NCBI GenBank assembly: GCA_050273025.1
Contig: CP158635.1
Coordinates: 11,532,001-11,596,000, forward strand
DNA: 64,000 nt
Reading direction: 5' to 3'
Source of the DNA: Cenococcum geophilum
Lineage: Eukaryota
A model generated the notes under the pieces. That model was not told the origin of the DNA, did not search any database, and worked only from the letters and a program-made list of their open reading frames with translations. This document shows positions 1-59,574 of this stretch, one piece after another; position 1 is the stretch's first letter; each line of letters opens with the position of its first letter. The position numbers and the translations under genes are program-made.

Positions 1-3000
1 ATAAGCCTATATAAGATTAACTAAATTATTAATAATAGAGAGGAAAGGCTAGCTAAGGAAACTAATAAGGAACTAGTTAAACGCCTCCTTTTTACCATTT
101 ATATAAACTATAAGGATATATTTTTAAAGGCGGCCTTAGATAAGTTACCCTCTACTAGATATATAATTATAAGATCTAATTAGAAGCTAATAACTCGCTA
201 GGCTATAGCCCCCTCTACTATTAATTAATGGATAAGCTAAAAGTAATAAAGTAGTATTTAATTAATAACCTAGATAAAGGGTTTATTAAGCTAAGTTAAG
301 CCCCTTTTACTTCCCCTATTCTGTTTATAAAAAAGCCTAATAAAAGTCTTAATTTTTATATTAACTATTAAAAGCTAAACGCTATTACTTAAAAGGACCA
401 GTATCCTATTCCTTTAATTAATAAGACCCTTATATATCTAAGCTAGGTAAAGATCTTTACTAAACTTAATATCTACTAAGCTTTTTACTAAATTAGGATA
501 GACCTTATATCCAAAGATTTAATAACGTTCTATACCCGTTATAGTTCTTATAAATATAAAGTTCTTCCTTTTAGACTAATAAATGGACCAGCTATGTACT
601 AAAGGTATATAAATAACGTTCTTTTTAATTACCTTAATAAATTCTATATGGTATACCTAGACAATATTCTTATATACTTAGACAATAAACTTAAGTATTA
701 AGTTTATATTAAGAAGGTTCTAGAGAGACTACAAAACACGGGCTTATAAGTTAATATTAAGAAATGCGAGTTTAGGGTAAAACGTATAAAATACCTTAGG
801 TTTATTATAACTATAGAAGAAATTAAGGTTAACCCTAAGAAGGTAGAGGCAATCCGTAACTAGGGGCCCCCTTATATAGTAAAAGAAATCTAATTCTTCC
901 TTAGCTTTTATAACTTCTACTACCGGTTTATCTATAACTATAGAATTATAGCAAAACCTCTTATATAACTAACTAGGAAGGACATACCTTTTATCTTTAA
1001 TAATAGCTATATAGAAGCCTTTAAAGAGATAAAAAATCGGCTTATCTCTTTTTTAATTCTTTATTACTATAACCTAAACCTTAAATTAATGCTAGAAATA
1101 GACGCCTCTAATAGGGTTATAGTGGGAATCCTATTATAGTTATATCTAGACGGCAAATAGTACCCTATAGCTTTCTTCTTAAAAATAATAAACTTAGCTA
1201 AGTATAACTATAAAGTACATAATAAAGAAATACTAGCTATTATTTAATTACTCTCTTAATAATATATAGAGCTTAAAGGTATAAACTTTTAGATTAAGAT
1301 ATATATAGATTATAAAGCCCTAAAGTATTTTATAATTATAAAGTAGCTTACTAAACAGTAAGCCTAGTAGGCTAAAATACTCTTTTAATTCTTTTTTATA
1401 ATTATATATTATTCTAGTAAGTAAAACTCTAAGGCTAATACCCTAACCTAAAGGGAATAAGACGTAAGACCTTAGAATAAGCTAAAGACCTAATATTAAA
1501 CGCGTGCCCTTCTTTATCTAGAATAGCTTAACCCGCGGATCCTTAAGGAGCTAAACTTCTAGTAAAACGAGCTAGCACTAATAGAGGAGTCCTTAGATAA
1601 GCTAATAGGGCTAATTAACCGCCTTTTAACTATAAACCGTATAGCTAATACCTTAAGGGCCCTCCGCAAATAAGCCGTAAAAGGAAACCCTAATTTTAAA
1701 ATAGAGGAAGGATTGCTCCTATACTAGGAGCGGCTTATAGTCCCTAACGTTAATAATTTACGGACTAAACTAATCCGCAAAGCTTATTATTAAGTCTCTA
1801 TAGTATACCTTAGTAAGAATAAGACCCGTAAAATTATTAACTGCCACTACTACTAGCTAAGAATAGTTGCGGATATTAATTAATATATATAGAACTATAA
1901 AGACTGCTAAAGAGCTATAATCCTACAGGATAAGACCCTAAAACTACTTAAGCTACTCCCAATACTAGAGCGCCCTTAGTAGTATATCTTTATAGACTTT
2001 TATAAACTACCTAGGGACCGTAACGGATATAATATAGTTATAGTTATAGTTAACCGCTTTAGTAAACGCCCGTTCTTAATTCCCTATTATAAGAGTATTA
2101 ATACTAAAGAGGTAGCCTAGCTATATATCTATTACGTCTACTAAATCTATAAACTACTAGATACTATTATATCTAATTATAGGCTATAGTTTATATCAGC
2201 CTTCTAGAATAAGTTTACCTAAATCCTAAGTATTAAGCTAAAGCTTTTTACGACTTATTATCCCTAAATAGACGGTTAGATAGAGATTATAAATTAGTAC
2301 CTAAACTAAAGGCTTAGGCCCTTTATTAACTATTTCTAGGATAACTAGTCTAAACTATTACCCTTAATAAACTACGCGCAAGTAACCCTACCCTATAACT
2401 CCACAGGGTTTGCCCCGATTTAGCTAAAAATAAGATACTTACCCTATATAAGCTTTAACTAGAAAAGGCTAGAAGAACCCTAGACTATATAAGAGAAGCT
2501 ATCCTATACTAAGGCCTAATAGTACGCTAAATAATTAGAGGAAGCTTAAATAGTAGCCTACAAGAACCTAAAAAAAGCTTAAAGATTAATAGAATAGTAG
2601 GCAAACAAACACCGTTAAGAGCCTAATTTTGCCCCTAGTAATATAGTCTAGGTTATAATAAGGAATTAAAAAACTAAATAACCCAGCCATAAGCTAGACT
2701 ACTAGATAGTAGAACCGTATAAGGTTCTTAAAAAGATAGGCAACTCGTATAAGATAAAGCTCCTAGATTTAATTAGGGTTTACTATAAAAGGCCAGCCTG
2801 ACCGGAACGTATAATTATCTAATTAACAGTGTTACTGGTAAGTAGAAGGTAGAATAAGTTTTTACGTATTAAAGAACAATTGCTTTTAACCACTTCTATT
2901 TAGAGACTAATCGCTAGTTCTTCTCTAGAGGGGAACTAGCTTCCTATATATTTCTTCCAAAACGCTAATAAAACCTTTCGCCCCTAACCTGTCTAACTAT

Positions 3001-3534
3001 ATCTTCTAGAATATAGATAGGATATAGATAAAACCTCCTACCGTTTTATCGGATATATACCTCCTAGGGGATTCTATTATAATTACCTCCCCTTTTAGGG
3101 TCTTAGTCCTCTAAGACTTTGCCTTTATTAAGCCTTTATAGAGTTCTAGCTAAAACCACTAGGGAAACCCTTAGTAAAAAGGTACTCTATAATGCGACTT
3201 ATTGCTAGCTCTTTACTAGCGCGGAACTTTACTTTATCTTTTATTCCTCTACTCTTCTCCCACCCTAGCTCCTTATAGTGCTTTTATAATAGGATTTTAA
3301 TAATAGTAATAAAAATTTAATGGGATTTACCTCTCTAATTTTAGGAATTTATTATAAATAGATTTAGAGGTTATCTGGTGCGACGCGTTAACTAACTACT
3401 ATCCCCATTTACCTAAATAGGCTTTAATAATAACATCTTTTATTTTAATTTCTTTCTATTTATAAGTCATCGCTCTTACTTATCCTTCTATTAGTAACAC
3501 TATTCGTCTCGTTCTTAAATAGGCTATTTTTATT

Positions 3535-4500
3535 ATATCTTGCCTTTTAGCTTCTATATCTCTAGCCGTACTTCCATTACTGCCTTATTATCTTTTCTTA
3601 ACGCGTCTATAAGTAATAGGATCCCCACCTTATCTCTTATAACGATGCTAACTTCTTAGAGTATTCTCCTATAATAGCTTATAGTCCTTTTACGCGTCCC
3701 TAAACCGGCAGCAGTATTATTCCTCTCCTAGTGACGCCCTAGACAGCGTCTGTTGCTCCTATAGCAGTTTCCCTAAAATACTTATTATCGCTGCATTTAT
3801 GCTCTTATATAGGATTCTTCCTACGTCTATAAGATGCCTTACTCTAGCGAAAATAAATCTAAGTGCTCCTATTACTGTAGTAGGAGAAAGACCTATATTC
3901 TAGTATTTCCCATTCCGTCCTATTCTAGATTTCGCTAATAGTACTAGATCCCCGCTGTCTATATATATAAGACTTATAGGCTTTAACGCGCCATTTAAGA
4001 TTTCCGCTAATATCCTAATAGTAATAGGTGGGGATAAAAGGTGTCTTCCCTTACTTATAGACTCTTTAATTTAATAAGGGTTTCCACTACTATAGAGACG
4101 TAATAATCTCGGATATATAGTGTCTAAGAGCGTATATGCGAACAGCTTACCCTTATTAATAATAATATTCGTACTTTTACGCGGGCTACTTTAGCTAGGT
4201 AAGTTTCTCTAGTAACTTACTTAGGAACTATACTAACTCCTTTAGCCAACGTCTCTCTAATCCCTACTTAGACGCTAATTTAGAACCTAGGGATACTAAG
4301 GATAGCAACAAAGGTTAAAATAAACGTTCTCCTTACTAGTTTCCCGCCTATGCTAGTCCTTCTAGTACCCATTATTCTAAGAAGAATATTAGTAGAAGTG
4401 CTAATGCTTTTAAGGATAGAGGAGCTAATAATACTATTAATAATAACATTAAGATAGAAGAAGAGGCTCCTATTACTACTATTAGTATTTAAGTTATTAC
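3535..4500 (+). pseudogene. RIP-inactivated antisense accessory gene of element B: Zn2Cys6-like motif plus acidic tail, up to three introns (ends approximate)
   Basis: C-x2-C-x11-C-x11-C-x2-C-x6-C at 3783-3896 (2 Cys intact, 4 restored by TA->TG). Intron-like segments 3609-3659 (GCTAAC..TAG), 3903-3947 and 4199-4245 (GTAAGT..TACTAAC..TAG). The last one joins two coding-like frames. Confidence 0.6.
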
Positions 4501-45660: not shown

Positions 45661-46498
45661 CGTGACCATGGTGGCGGCGGTGCGTGTCTTTGGATGGGTT
45701 TAGAGAACTGAGAAGGTTGGAATTATATTTGATATGTGCGGGCTGTCCTTGACATTCCCGATATAGAAATATCCGAGGTGAGGTAATTCTAGCACAAGCG
45801 CTTGACAATGCCAGGCACAGGTGAAAGTTTTTCACGAAATATCCCTCATGAAATTAGCCCTTAAGCTCTGAAAAGTCGTCGCTGTATGTGCCAGCAGCGT
45901 ATATACGCAGCTCAAAGCTGCGGTCGCGTCATATGACATAGCTCTGTGCGGGGCGAACAGGTGACCCTCACACCATCATCTGAAGTCTCGCCTAATCCCG
46001 TAACGCTCTCCCGTAGATCAGAGCCTCACCGGCGGGTTAACGATCCTTAACCGGCCGATTTCGCACTGCAGCCTTGCCAAACGTGCGCGCATTGCACTGC
46101 GCCCACGTTGCACCGCGCCGCTGAGTTCAGTGCAGATAACGATGCGGCAGAGCGCTCTCATACGCGGAGCATTGGAACTGCGTAGGCTAATCCCGGGAGC
46201 TTGGTCTGCTGTGATGCTGGGCTTCGCGCGAGTTGGGCGCGTGCTGGGGGGACCTAGGGAGCGTTGGGCGATGGGGTCAGAAGGGGTGAAGTTGGAATGT
46301 TCCGGTTTCTGCCGAGAAGGCTTTTCCGGGAATGTCGGGAGCTGGTTCGCCAGCCCATCACAGACTACTTTCATTTTAATTCAGGATTGCATTGGTTTTG
46401 GGTTTAAGACGGACTTAACATTGCTGTTCGGGGGCTGAACAACCTGTTTGTATTGCTGGTGATAAGTATTACTAAGTGACTTTCGGAAAAGACCTTTA

Positions 46499-46628
46499 TC
46501 CCTTGAACCGTCAATTATCGTCCTACGTTATCGATAAGGATTTGGCCAATCAGGACGCATAGATTTTTAGTGTTTTATGCACGGGCAATATCCTTATCGA
46601 TAACGTAGTTCACTGACGGTTCAAGGGA
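46499..46628. mobile_element. 130-bp MITE (TCCCTTGAACCGTCA TIR family)
   Basis: Perfect 15-bp TIR plus inner inverted repeat CTACGTTATCGATAAGGAT. TA on the left flank. Related sequences at 58728, 59210 and 61454. Confidence 0.8.
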
Positions 46629-47379
46629 CAGTTTAGGGTTTCAATATAGGCTTTGCTGTAGCTGCTGAGAACATCAAGCCGTGCAGAGCATCTGACTAAC
46701 AATCTAGTTGTAATCGAGCTTATGGCAGTAATATGCCCAGATATTTCCTCTACCGATTTAATATCAAATGGTATCTTTGGGAGAAGATGCAATTATGATA
46801 TGCTCCTGTATCGTATTGTCGATCCAGGTCGGATTTTGGTGATTACCCCGTTCCCGTTCTAGTTGCCTATCACCTTATGATTTCATACTATTTCTATTAC
46901 CTTTCTATTACCTATTACCCGATGTCGATTAAGTGGCAATGAGGTAACAGTTTCAAATCAACGTCAGTGTCGACGTCAGCCTTTGACACCTACTTAGTGT
47001 ATATAATGAGGCTCTAGAGCCCCTTGCAATAAGACATAATTATCATTCTTTTTATCTTTTGGTCTTCCGATCGACACGTATAAACTAACAATCCTGGAAG
47101 CTGCCCGACCTAAAAATAGCTAGAGAACCCCCTGCAATACAAATAATTTTGGAGGCTATTCAGGGGGCACGGCAATCCCTCACTATGAAAAGCAAAACAA
47201 AACCCAATTTCCACGGTTCTAAATCGATACATAGTCGACCAAATAGGCACGTAGTGATTGAAAAGGGTTTCTAAGTCGATAGTTTTCTGATTCGCCTCGG
47301 CCAGTCACAGGGATGCGCAGCTATCCCTTACAGGCACATAAAAAATCTCTGTCATTTGCAGATGACAGCCAAAAAGGCG

Positions 47380-47520
47380 TAGACCCACTGGGGATCGAAC
47401 CCAGGACCTTTCGCGCTTTGAAAGCTAATCACCCAGATGTGAAGCGAACGCTAGCGAATATTAGATAGAACATAAGGGGATGTTGGATGCAACATACTCA
47501 TACCACTAGACCATGAGTCT
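47380..47520 (-). tRNA. tV(CAC): tRNA-Val(CAC) with two intervening sequences
   Basis: Acceptor stem AGACTCA/TGGGTCT plus discriminator A. A box TGGTCTAGTGG. Anticodon arm TTCGC-TTCACA^C-GCGAA with a 22-nt canonical intron at 47437-47416. T arm CTGGG-TTCGATC-CCCAG. TTTTT terminator at 47375-47371. D stem is complete only after removing 47497-47451. Confidence 0.88.
47451..47497 (-). other. Spliceosomal-type intron (47 nt) in the tRNA D-stem between positions 24 and 25
   Basis: GTATGTTGCATCCAACATCCCCTTATGTTCTATCTAATATTCGCTAG: GTATGT donor, CTAAT branch, TAG acceptor. Confidence 0.75.
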
Positions 47521-48360
47521 TTATATTGAGGCAGAGATTCAGAAATTTTAATAAGTTCTTATATAGAAAAGCATTTTTGGACAAGAGCGTCTTGTAGGAC
47601 TTCGAGGGAGGATTAGACTCTTCAAAGCAATTCCGACGTCGGGACGGAAAATCTTTATAGCTGTTCTTGCACCCTCAACGACTCCCCCACTCTCTACTCT
47701 CCTAAGTGCACATAACACCGCCATATGTTTTATTCAATTCTTCGCTAAGTGTGTGAGCTGAAGGTTGGGCGTACGACTAGGTTTCTGCGCCCATAATCTG
47801 TTTCCGTTACCTGAGATTCGGACTTTCCTTCAAGCTCTATTTGGCTGGCATTTTGGTTGTTTTACTAACGGCCTTTGTTCGACACTTATTGCAACTGCGA
47901 GTTGGGAGAAATGCTATGCTCCGTGTCTTATTCGATGATATAGTTTGTGACATATGCGAGGATTTCTTGTTCGAAGGTGGCGTTTGGACTTGTTGGCTTC
48001 CGTAGGCTATCATTAGCCTGTCAGAGCCGGAATGTCTTACGCTTTATCTCGGTTGGGTTGCTTTGCCTCGTAACCCAACGTATTGCTGGAGGCACTGCCA
48101 TTGCTGGCGGTTCTGAAAGCATTACTTTCAGAAAGGCAATTTCTAATTTATCGGCAAGTTCATCCCATTCAGAGTATACGCTTCTTTACATTTGATTATT
48201 GATATTGTGTATTCATGACACCTCGCACCGCTTCTCATTTATAGTAAGCCAACCTAGCAACCCTGCTAGTGCATGCCTTACTAAATAGATGTTACTTTAA
48301 ACCCCGAAAACCGCAATCATATGATAAAGTTCCAAAGCAATTCTACAAAGCTCTTTAATA

Positions 48361-49864
48361 TCAAATAGACTCGGATGCATCCTCTGTATACGCATTCCTT
48401 AGTGGCACACCTCCGCGTTGAACCCTGCTCTGGGTACTCTGATGTCGAGAAGGCCCTGGTCTACGTGGTCTTCCTGGAGGACTCGCTCTCCGGTGCTGCG
48501 GTAATTCAGCGTGAACTGATTCAGTCAATACAAACGTAAAAATTGTTGTCTTTTTTCATGAAGCAGTGGCCCAATTACTTACTAGAACCTACGTCTATGT
48601 CAGTCCAATTATCATTGGGCTCGGGATCGGCATCGTTCAGACCGCCGTCGAGATCATGGGGCATGCTGTTCCTGCCACCATGCATTGTGAATTGAGAGTC
48701 GTCTTCGTATCCCCCTCCAGGCATAGGATTCCTCAGTATTTTCCCACCAGGTATATGACGGCCACCTCTTCTTCCTCCTCTTCCGTTTCTTTCTCTAGAC
48801 TGCGTGCCGTTACCTCTTGTTCTCTCCATACCGCCGTAGGCGCCGTACGCAGGCATTTCGGAAGAGTCAAAAAGGTTCGAACCATTTCTAACCATGCCAA
48901 GCCGTTGTAAGCTGTATCCAGGACCCCTGCCAAAGATCCTGGCTCCTCTAGGGTCCCGTCGATTTGATGGTCTAATTCCCCCGGGGTCATCGTCACCATA
49001 AGACTTATTGTCATTGAAGGCGCCTCCAAGGCCCCCTCCTTGGTATTGCCTTCCTCGACCATTCCCACCTCTTTGAATCGCCTGAGACAACTGGCCTAAC
49101 CCACCACTAATATGCCCTAACCCATCAGTAATATGATTCAACCGGTCATCCACCCCCCTCAACCCTTTATTCAACTTTCTACCCAATTTCTGAACTCTGA
49201 TAGTTGCCTTTCGGGACCCATCATCCCCATCATCGTCGCTATCATCCCCACCCCTACCCCTACTCCCTCTCCTCCCATTCCCCCTCTTCCCTTTACCCTT
49301 ACCCTCTTTACTTCTTCCCTTTCTACCGTCATCGCCGCACATTCCATTCCCATCACAATTCCTCCCCACCTCCTCCTTCAGCACATACCTATGCTCGCCA
49401 TCCTCAGTTCTACCGTCCCCATACCGCGTGCGAAACAGCACCTGATTCCCCTTACGGCACCTACACTCGCGCGTGCAGAAACACGCATCCAGGAACGGAT
49501 CCCCGGGGAACTGCTCCACCGGCCGCAGTGGCGGGTAGCCCCGGTGGTCATGTCCCAGCTCGCGGAAATCAGGAACTCGTTCTGCGCGCGGCGAGGCCAT
49601 GCGTCGGGGGGGTCGAGCGGCGTGGCGGCGGGCGGGCGTGGCTGGGGCTGGGGCGTATATTGGGGCTACGCGTGGCGAGCGCGGGGGCGTTGGGGTATAG
49701 TAGCGGTTCGGGAGGATGTAGTAAGTGCCATCTCTGCCGTGGCGGTTGTTGTAGCGGTCGCCCCCGTCGGGATAGAGGGTGTGGGCGGGGACGAGGGCGT
49801 ATGAGTAGGGCGGTTGGGCTTTTATAAGGGGGGCCAGGGGTTGGCAGGAGAAGGCGTTTCCCAT
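48361..49864 (-). CDS. Hypothetical Gly/Arg/Pro-rich protein with a small Cys cluster
   Basis: Long ORF, probable start MGNAFSC at 49864. CFCTRECRC motif. Probable terminal intron 48582-48516 (GTAAGT..CAG) extends the frame to TGA at 48361. Confidence 0.65.
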
Positions 49865-50691
49865 GCCCGCCTGCTGGTCGTGAATTGGAGCAGAGCGGGA
49901 AGAGCAAGATTTGGGAGCTTGTTGGTAGAGTCGAGGCGTGTGCGCTGCGACTGAGTGGAAATTGACGTCCTGAAGTTCTGAGGCCAGACAAGTGGCAGTG
50001 TTAGGATGCTTAGGCACCAAACAATTTCATTGAATGGAAATCCGTGGACAACAGTATTAAGTAATATCGTTGCAGTCAGGAAAACAGAAAGATTTGCAAG
50101 TGGATAAAGAAACAGACGGGCTTGGTGTCTGTAATGCGGCATTATGTATGTGCTGGACCGTTTGCAGCTGAGGCAGACTAAGCCAGAAGGAAGACTTCAA
50201 TGTAGGCTGCGGATCGATGTTGGGAATGCTGGGTAGAGGCTGTTTGTGAAGCAGTATGTTGAATGTTTGCTCTAGTATAGGGGTTGCACGAACGACACAA
50301 CCTAAGCATTAAAGTCAGCAGAAGCTGCGACAATGCTATCAGGCAGATAGGCAAACTTTCATAACAGAGTAGCATATCAAATCACGAGAGACAGCTGCTC
50401 CAAGTATTATGAAGTAGTTTTGACAATGTATTGTTCATCCCCTGCATCATGTCTCATCCATTACACAGAGATCTCGTGAAACAGCCACCCGTCAGAACGC
50501 CCAAGATCCAAGACAAACAATAACAAGAATGGAAGGGGATTTGAAAATAAGAGAAGGGAAGCTGTACAGCCAAGACGTGTAAGACCAATTGCCAATAGAA
50601 ACAATATGAATAGTAGTCCCAATGTTCAAACACTGCCGCGCAGCGACGTGTCCAAAAGGAAAGAAAGAGAAGAAGTGCGTTGAATGCCAGC

Positions 50692-59209: not shown

Positions 59210-59329
59210 CCCGTCAGGGTACTACGTTATCGATAAAATTTTGGCCAATCAGAAAGCATAGATGAGTACGGTTCCTTGGTGTTATACGCACGGGCCATAC
59301 TCTTATCGATAACATAGTGCCCTGATGGG
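59210..59329. mobile_element. MITE related to 46499-46628
   Basis: CCCGTCAGGGTACTACGTTATCGATAA ... TTATCGATAACATAGTGCCCTGATGGG; shares internal TTGGCCAATCAG..GCATAGAT..GCACGGGC. Confidence 0.75.
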
Positions 59330-59333
59330 TGAT

Positions 59334-59574
59334 GGGTATCTGACTTTCGGTGTTCCCCCTGTGCGCGCAACACACAGCATTTTCGCTACGCACTAGAGAA
59401 TTTCAAGCTTAACTCTTGTAATTAAGCTTAAAAAATTAAAGGCTTTGCCTTCCTTGCGGGTGCTCAGCTCTTTTGGCAAGCGCACAGTATCTACGCTGAA
59501 TGGTTGTGTGACTAGCGATCACCGAAATTGCCGTGTGTGTTGCGCGCGCAAACAGGGGGGAAGGTCGGATACCC
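59334..59574. mobile_element. Second MITE-like foldback abutting the first
   Basis: GGGTATCTGACTT/AGGTCGGATACCC, TTCCCCCTGT/ACAGGGGGGAA and GCGCGCAACACAC/GTGTGTTGCGCGC inverted pairs. Confidence 0.65.

Follow-up and report, generated by a model that had tools for sequence, protein, structure and literature searches.

How is RNA made from a tRNA gene whose D arm is split by a 47-nucleotide (nt) segment with the ends of a messenger RNA (mRNA) intron, and what takes that segment out? The question is raised by a tRNA-Val(CAC) gene on the minus strand of a 64,000-nt stretch of Cenococcum geophilum contig CP158635.1 (assembly GCA_050273025.1, positions 11,532,001 to 11,596,000), which is the window in which all coordinates below are counted. 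An earlier note, made from the letters alone, had taken the segment for a spliceosomal intron lying ahead of an ordinary tRNA intron. The exactness with which the segment is excised from RNA, its conservation and the absence of a bulge-helix-bulge at its ends together support reading it as a spliceosomal-type intron, removed before the tRNA-endonuclease intron. We give a probability of roughly 0.72 to the reading that a filamentous ascomycete carries here a conserved nuclear gene for tRNA-Val(CAC) with two introns of different kinds, a U2-type spliceosomal intron in the D arm and an intron of the type cut by the tRNA endonuclease SEN in the anticodon loop. That the product is a decoding tRNA needing two unrelated splicing systems in fixed order, the first possibly acting on a precursor made by RNA polymerase II (Pol II), is a further claim to which we give somewhat better than even odds. 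The parts of the gene are as follows.

47380..47520, minus strand: tRNA-Val(CAC) gene, 141 nt in the genome and 72 nt without both introns
47498..47520, minus strand: exon 1, 23 nt, tRNA positions 1-24 with position 17 absent
47451..47497, minus strand: GT-AG intron of 47 nt that splits the D stem in its 3' strand, after tRNA position 24 and before 25
47492..47497, minus strand: 5' splice site GTATGT, as read from the sequence
47460..47464, minus strand: branch-site-like CTAAT, with a putative branch A at 47461, 10 nt before the last intron base
47451..47453, minus strand: 3' splice site TAG, where the RNA joint ends unambiguously (both = 0)
47438..47450, minus strand: first part of exon 2, 13 nt, positions 25-37, with the anticodon CAC included
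47416..47437, minus strand: 22-nt canonical tRNA intron, after position 37 (ARAGORN: intron at 37)
47380..47415, minus strand: last exon part, 36 nt, positions 38-73
47391..47401, minus strand: B box GGTTCGATCCC, a match to the pattern GGTTCRANNCC

Excision from RNA and conservation of the splice signals

Twenty public runs contain the stretch 46400-48600, and four of them (X6, X5, X1 and X21) were compared over 46900-48000. X6 is on record as metatranscriptomic RNA, X5 comes from a different study and its label as RNA is a guess, and X1 is a DNA run. The X6 contig, 492 nt long at a depth of 186.4, matches 47047-47450 and 47498-47585 with 0 other letters, and its joint skips exactly the 47 nt from 47451 to 47497; the skipped piece has plus-strand ends CT..AC, that is, minus-strand GT..AG, from which the strand of the spliced RNA was assigned, and no letters are shared across the joint (both = 0). 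The X5 contig (419 nt, depth 166.1) follows 47048-47450 and then carries 16 loose letters equal to plus-strand 47498-47513, giving the same junction as X6. Both runs have zero depth in the intron bin 47455-47491 and likewise over the intergenic interval 47603-47713, and the latter indicates that their signal is not DNA carry-over. In the DNA of X1, a single contig of 11,655 nt covers 47052-48000 without a gap, with the insert present and no joined form. The 47-nt insert is removed from RNA precisely at its GT and AG ends, and the ATGA/CGTT junction that had been predicted is present in the X6 contig and at the end of the X5 contig. The 22-nt intron is retained in the spliced RNA contigs and skipped in no run; an RNA species thus exists that has lost the 47-nt intron and kept the canonical tRNA intron, which supports the order proposed earlier, with the spliceosome acting ahead of SEN. 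As long as it interrupts the D arm, the insert should keep SEN from acting, which fits this observed intermediate.

Metagenome contigs were scanned with two exon anchors separated by a free gap of 30-60 nt, GT and AG not being required. The scan returned two loci, L001 and L002, and both keep the insert. Over 3.1 kb L001 and the window are 95.6% identical, with about 2.7% divergence in the flanks, and the tRNA and both introns of L001 are unchanged. L002 is about 92% identical in blocks, with repeats rearranged, and differs from the window in 54/487 columns of the flanks (11%), in 9/48 columns of the 47-nt intron (48 nt there), in 1/22 of the tRNA intron and in 0/73 of the exons, where about 8 differences would be expected at the flank rate by our own arithmetic. 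All nine intron changes fall in the donor-branch or branch-acceptor intervals and none in the 14 signal positions of GTATGT, CTAAT and TAG, which are invariant in L001 and L002. The pattern expected of a real intron in the earlier note, conserved splice signals around a diverged interior, is therefore what this one diverged relative displays. The tRNA exons would seem to be either constrained or homogenised by paralogs.

With the spliceosome as the cutting agent, as we infer, expression of a tRNA-Val(CAC) gene with two introns of different kinds would run as follows. The locus would be transcribed and the spliceosome would excise the D-arm intron, before which neither the D arm nor the L-shaped body could form; the folded precursor would then be trimmed by RNase P and RNase Z, and SEN and Trl1 would take out the 22-nt intron. 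A mature, charged tRNA would be the presumed outcome. Under transcription by RNA polymerase III (Pol III) the substrate of the spliceosome would be a Pol III product, as is the case for fission-yeast U6.

tRNA structure, deletion control and standard tools

The letters of 47520-47380 on the minus strand were read again and give the layout that the earlier note had written down. Exon 1 supplies the 5' strands of the acceptor and D stems, U8, the D loop, which has G18G19, and three bases on the 3' side of the D stem; the first part of exon 2 holds C25, G26, the 5' strand of the anticodon stem and the loop up to A37; and the last part completes the anticodon stem and adds a variable loop of 5 nt, a perfect T arm, the 3' side of the acceptor stem and the discriminator A. 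After intron removal the cloverleaf has an acceptor stem of 7 base pairs (bp) with anticodon and T stems of 5 bp each, and the conserved tRNA positions are intact (U8, A14, G18G19, U33, G53, T54-A58 and C61, with the T loop TTCGATC and the discriminator A). Inside the 22-nt intron lies GGGTG, complementary to the anticodon region. Exon 1 also contains, intact, TGGTCTAGTGG (47503..47513, minus strand), which from its likeness to the consensus we take to be the A box. The B-box pattern GGTTCRANNCC matches once in the whole window, and at least one match occurs in 26/100 shuffles as well; no second B box or other tRNA-like gene was found with this pattern in the 64 kb. The other arms, the two boxes and the terminator had been described as undamaged, and so they are: the cloverleaf passes ARAGORN, the B box is found by pattern, and the A box and the T5 and T6 tracts downstream are read in the sequence.

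At default settings ARAGORN finds 0 tRNAs across the 64-kb window, and with its intron option it mis-assigns the locus as a tRNA-Trp(CCA) with a 49-nt intron, a call that is lost at a threshold of 105%. On genomic DNA, Rfam returns no match to its tRNA family (RF00005) at the gathering score and none at E<=10 over 47300-47620, as is expected for an interrupted gene; its weak hits Plastid-ycf2, mir-1261 and UCA1 (E 1.1-6.7) were dismissed as chance. Standard finders thus miss the gene, as had been anticipated, and because both tools do so, fungal tRNA sets may be under-counted through this annotation blind spot. Deleting 47497-47451 in silico leads ARAGORN to report tRNA-Val(CAC) with a 22-nt intron at the canonical site, and with both inserts deleted the cloverleaf is still accepted when the default thresholds are raised to 115%. 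As a control, 741 deletions of 35-60 nt across the region were each scored by ARAGORN. At the default threshold 7/741 give tRNA-Val(CAC) with a 22-nt intron, all of them 47 nt long and shifted by -4 to +2; at 110% only 1/741 survives, and it is precisely 47497-47451 with its GT..AG ends. The splice signals thus sit at the same boundary as the one that gives the best restored tRNA, and the claim that removal of precisely this segment rebuilds the tRNA is borne out by the ARAGORN calls.

The donor consensus in fungi is GTRNGT. By our own arithmetic, a 47-mer that starts with GTRNGT, ends in YAG and has CTRAY 5-18 nt before its end is expected about 3 times per million for each boundary. The window holds 3 matches to a loosely anchored donor/branch/acceptor pattern and 100 shuffles give 5.1 +/- 2.3, so that the pattern is not enriched. 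The earlier note had likened the insert to neighbouring mRNA introns; no validated mRNA intron was found within the window against which the intron grammar could be compared, and a look-alike pattern at 4199-4245 was rejected, lying in AT-rich DNA with no coding frame. An introner-like origin was also set aside, the 47-nt sequence having no second copy in the window, as was a tRNA pseudogene or tRNA-derived repeat (short interspersed nuclear element): the structure is intact, the DNA depth is at the level of unique sequence and the locus has no second copy in the window. In X1 the contig that holds the locus has a depth of 56.8, equal to that of unique flanks, contig depth being a rough guide.

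The statement in the earlier note that no duplication flanks the insert stands for a target-site duplication, of which there is none, but short direct repeats are present at both junctions (47447-47503, minus strand). GTATGA at the end of exon 1 is followed directly by GTATGT at the start of the intron, and the TTCGCT near the end of the intron recurs 4 nt later at the start of exon 2 (5/6 in L002). These repeats, noticed post hoc, may trace the origin of the intron, or the site may have been favoured because the D arm was already donor-like. If the tRNA does need the spliceosome, intron gain could be examined through them in a small structured RNA that has no reading frame.

Transcript extent, polymerase and rival explanations

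The spliced RNA and the elements around the gene are located as follows.

47047..47585, minus strand: extent of the spliced RNA contig of X6, 492 nt after the 47-nt skip
47371..47375, minus strand: T5 tract, Pol III terminator-like, 4 nt past the discriminator base
47349..47368, minus strand: 7-bp hairpin between the T5 and T6 tracts
47340..47345, minus strand: second T tract, T6 (T9 in L002)
47558..47565, minus strand: TATA-like TATATAAG, 38-45 nt upstream of the tRNA 5' end
47633..47660, minus strand: block with CTATAAAG (47660-47653) and the palindrome CCGACGTCGG (47642-47633), a possible Pol II promoter

The RNA seen spans at least 539 nt of the genome. The X6 contig begins at 47585, 65 nt upstream of the tRNA 5' end, and the X6 and X5 contigs cross T5, T6, three T4 runs and another T5 to reach about 47047, more than 330 nt beyond the T tracts, where they stop because a high-copy repeat starts there. 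The short Pol III pre-tRNA pictured in the earlier note is thus not what was found: the spliced RNA seen is a longer transcript. It forms a separate unit, since the minus-strand gene upstream ends at about 47726, as marked by an adapter-tagged RNA contig end (contig ends 47725/47726) and an AATAAA at 47734-47729. The T5 tract is conserved in L001 and L002, and the A and B boxes are conserved in L002. In the 47349-47368 hairpin of L002 one T-A pair has become C-G, both sides having changed, and the outer pair no longer forms; this hairpin may belong to a Pol III termination zone or to a structure of the 3' trailer.

A long RNA that crosses T tracts resembles a Pol II product, and for the RNA actually seen we lean slightly towards Pol II. 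The upstream block 47700-47625 is well conserved, and its letters would suit a Pol II promoter lying about 70 nt ahead of the end of the contig, although its TATA reads CCATAAAG in L002. Pol III is fitted as well, by the intact A and B boxes, the TATA near -40, the conserved series of T5, hairpin and T6-T9, and the X5 end 7 nt inside the tRNA. Two of the rival explanations turn on this choice. The locus could be all or part of a gene for a Pol II non-coding RNA, one that holds tRNA-derived sequence, has the 47-nt intron as its own and yields no functional tRNA. Such a gene would account for the fact that only long RNAs are seen, running from 47585 to 47047 into the repeat and across T5, T6, the three T4 and T5, and for the conserved block, with a TATA-like element and a palindrome, ahead of them; the X5 contig, moreover, consists mostly of 3' extension at a depth of 166, so that the extension is abundant, and the stretch bears no notable open reading frame (ORF; the longest starting with ATG on this strand has 40 amino acids) and no Rfam family. 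A passenger pseudogene would drift, however, and the exons differ at 0/73 columns where the flanks differ at 11%; the tRNA positions, the anticodon-complementary intron, the A and B boxes and the two conserved T tracts are all intact, and the library types used could not reveal a 72-nt mature tRNA anyway. We judge this explanation unlikely, though it deserves more weight than those taken up in the next paragraph. The other possibility is a variant of the tRNA-Val(CAC) gene with two introns of different kinds rather than a departure from it: a short Pol III precursor spliced after transcription, as in fission-yeast U6, with the long RNAs as read-through or by-products. Its A box (47513-47503) and B box (47401-47391) are intact; the TATA at -45 to -38 is kept in L002, where it persists as TATAAG; the T5 tract and its backup T6 (T9 in L002) are conserved; and U6 already offers the example of an mRNA-type intron spliced from the product of a Pol III gene, as far as the available part of PMC5855946 describes it. 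Set against this, the X6 contig extends upstream past the TATA at -40, both contigs traverse every T tract, and the two introns stretch the distance from A to B box to about 100 nt. Such stretched distances can be tolerated. We regard this variant as possible but hold to it only tentatively.

The remaining rivals concern the cut itself. An ectopic tRNA-type intron could be cut by SEN at a structure resembling a bulge-helix-bulge, as in archaea and Cyanidioschyzon, and the available part of PMC3728597 does describe ectopic and multiple introns in nuclear tRNA genes of Cyanidioschyzon merolae. In the minimum-energy fold of the unspliced RNA (142 nt), however, the acceptor, T and anticodon arms are kept, the D region pairs with the intron, and both insert ends lie inside helices and not in 3-nt bulges (z = -0.54); a bulge-helix-bulge with 3-nt bulges and a 4-bp helix is absent from the insert ends in the minimum-energy and centroid folds alike. 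The predicted pairing between the intron 3' end and the D region is disrupted by a C-to-G change at 47456 in L002, the ends read GTATGT and TAG with CTAAT 10 nt upstream, and RNAs that have lost the insert retain the canonical SEN intron; of all the explanations we find this one the least credible. Scarcely better is the idea that nothing is spliced, either because the strains in the RNA runs lack the insert in their DNA or because the joint is an artefact of reverse transcription or assembly. The RNA runs do bear organism labels other than that of DNA run X1, and contigs cannot reveal rare unspliced forms. Yet over 492 and 403 nt the RNA contigs agree with the window letter for letter, L001 and L002 retain the insert at flank divergences of about 2.7% and 11%, the joint shares no letters (both = 0), unlike the products of template switching, no 30-nt repeat is present that could mislead a de Bruijn assembly, and two runs from two studies show the same junction.

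Several points nevertheless weigh against a functional tRNA-Val(CAC) gene with two introns of different kinds. The spliced RNA passes at least five T tracts and may be a Pol II non-coding RNA that merely contains tRNA sequence. Neither a mature tRNA nor a short Pol III-type precursor is represented by a read or contig in the runs compared, such libraries missing RNAs of about 110-160 nt, so that a short Pol III route would be invisible in them. Contigs give no strand, ends or local depth and may merge overlapping transcripts. Among the reads of X21, the only RNA run used as raw reads, of which about 12% was read, 1 read falls on the 1.1-kb stretch and 0 on the tRNA; either the run is uninformative on the locus or the RNA is not always abundant. 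The comparative evidence is thin, coming from one diverged relative, and the identity of the exons could reflect concerted evolution with paralogs. The first pair of the acceptor stem, finally, is A1:U72, which is typical of eukaryotic initiator tRNAs and unusual for elongators.

Comparison with known systems and the neighbourhood

A full-text literature search, which covered sources outside subscription journals, returned no described case of a spliceosomal or mRNA-type intron in a tRNA gene. As far as their available parts go, reviews treat spliceosomal and tRNA introns as separate systems: PMC12530127 (2025) places spliceosomal introns in mRNAs and in the other transcripts of Pol II and describes the three types of nuclear intron as completely unrelated, and PMC10275265 sets the splicing of pre-mRNA by the spliceosome apart from that of pre-tRNA, which is carried out by a small endonuclease complex together with a ligase. 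The accessible text of a tRNA-intron review (PMC4090602) is without any word beginning 'spliceosom', the corresponding portion of PMC11782384 mentions no spliceosomal intron in a tRNA, and the intron hosts listed in the excerpts of PMC5855946 are U6, U2, U5, U1 and ribosomal RNA (rRNA).

The introns of fungal U6 small nuclear RNA (snRNA) are of mRNA type and comparable to the tRNA-Val intron (Tani and Ohshima 1989, 1991; Canzler et al. 2016, as cited in the available parts of PMC5855946 and PMC5832005). To judge from the same excerpts, both hosts are small structured non-coding RNAs with an internal promoter of Pol III type, both introns are short, with canonical donor, branch and acceptor and the rest unconserved, and in both splicing is required before folding. 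Unlike U6, the tRNA lies outside the active centre of the spliceosome, so that the explanation of the U6 intron by reverse splicing through proximity does not apply, and its gene has, besides, an intron of a different type whose removal depends on SEN. Spliceosomal introns are also found in other fungal non-coding RNA genes, those of U3 small nucleolar RNA (snoRNA), of the U1, U2 and U5 snRNAs and of ascomycete nuclear rRNA, and in the parts of PMC5832005 and PMC5855946 that list such hosts the tRNA is absent. Compared with canonical eukaryotic tRNA introns, which lie at 37/38 and are removed by TSEN and a ligase, the 22-nt intron matches in standing after position 37 and in its anticodon-complementary stretch; the 47-nt intron differs in lying in the D arm, in its GT-AG ends and branch motif, and in being lost from RNA independently of the 22-nt intron. 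Archaeal and C. merolae tRNA genes with ectopic introns likewise may hold more than one intron with one of them outside the anticodon loop, according to the available part of PMC3728597. Their introns are recognised by the tRNA endonuclease through a bulge-helix-bulge, unlike that of tRNA-Val, in which none is predicted. MALAT1 mascRNA and the dicistronic tRNA-snoRNA genes of plants are further units in which a tRNA shape sits within a longer transcript and is released by RNase P and RNase Z; these hold no spliceosomal intron, and mascRNA is not a decoding tRNA.

If this tRNA does need the spliceosome, the supply of the decoder of GUG would depend on splicing capacity, linking translation and splicing. 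Either the spliceosome would then act on a Pol III product besides U6, or the tRNA would arise from a Pol II transcript.

The upstream neighbour (48575-50020, minus strand) is a transcribed ORF of 429-481 amino acids, rich in Gly, Arg and Asp and with no Pfam match. Directly downstream of the transcript lies the high-copy repeat at 46900-47076 (perhaps about 46806-47076), with an X1 depth of 687-3431 against 56.8 in the flanks; neither inverted terminal repeats nor another copy in the window were found. At 47076/47077 several RNA contigs diverge from one another and continue differently, and blocks of the repeat region stand in a different order in L002. A palindromic element of about 130 bp, a long inverted repeat, is present at 46493-46632 and 59211-59336 and also in L001 and L002; it resembles a miniature inverted-repeat element and accounts for the chance-level Rfam match to mir-1261 (E = 1.1). 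The window also encodes a DEAD-box helicase, which groups with clusters named for the mitochondrial helicase mrh4, their members being mostly Ascomycota.

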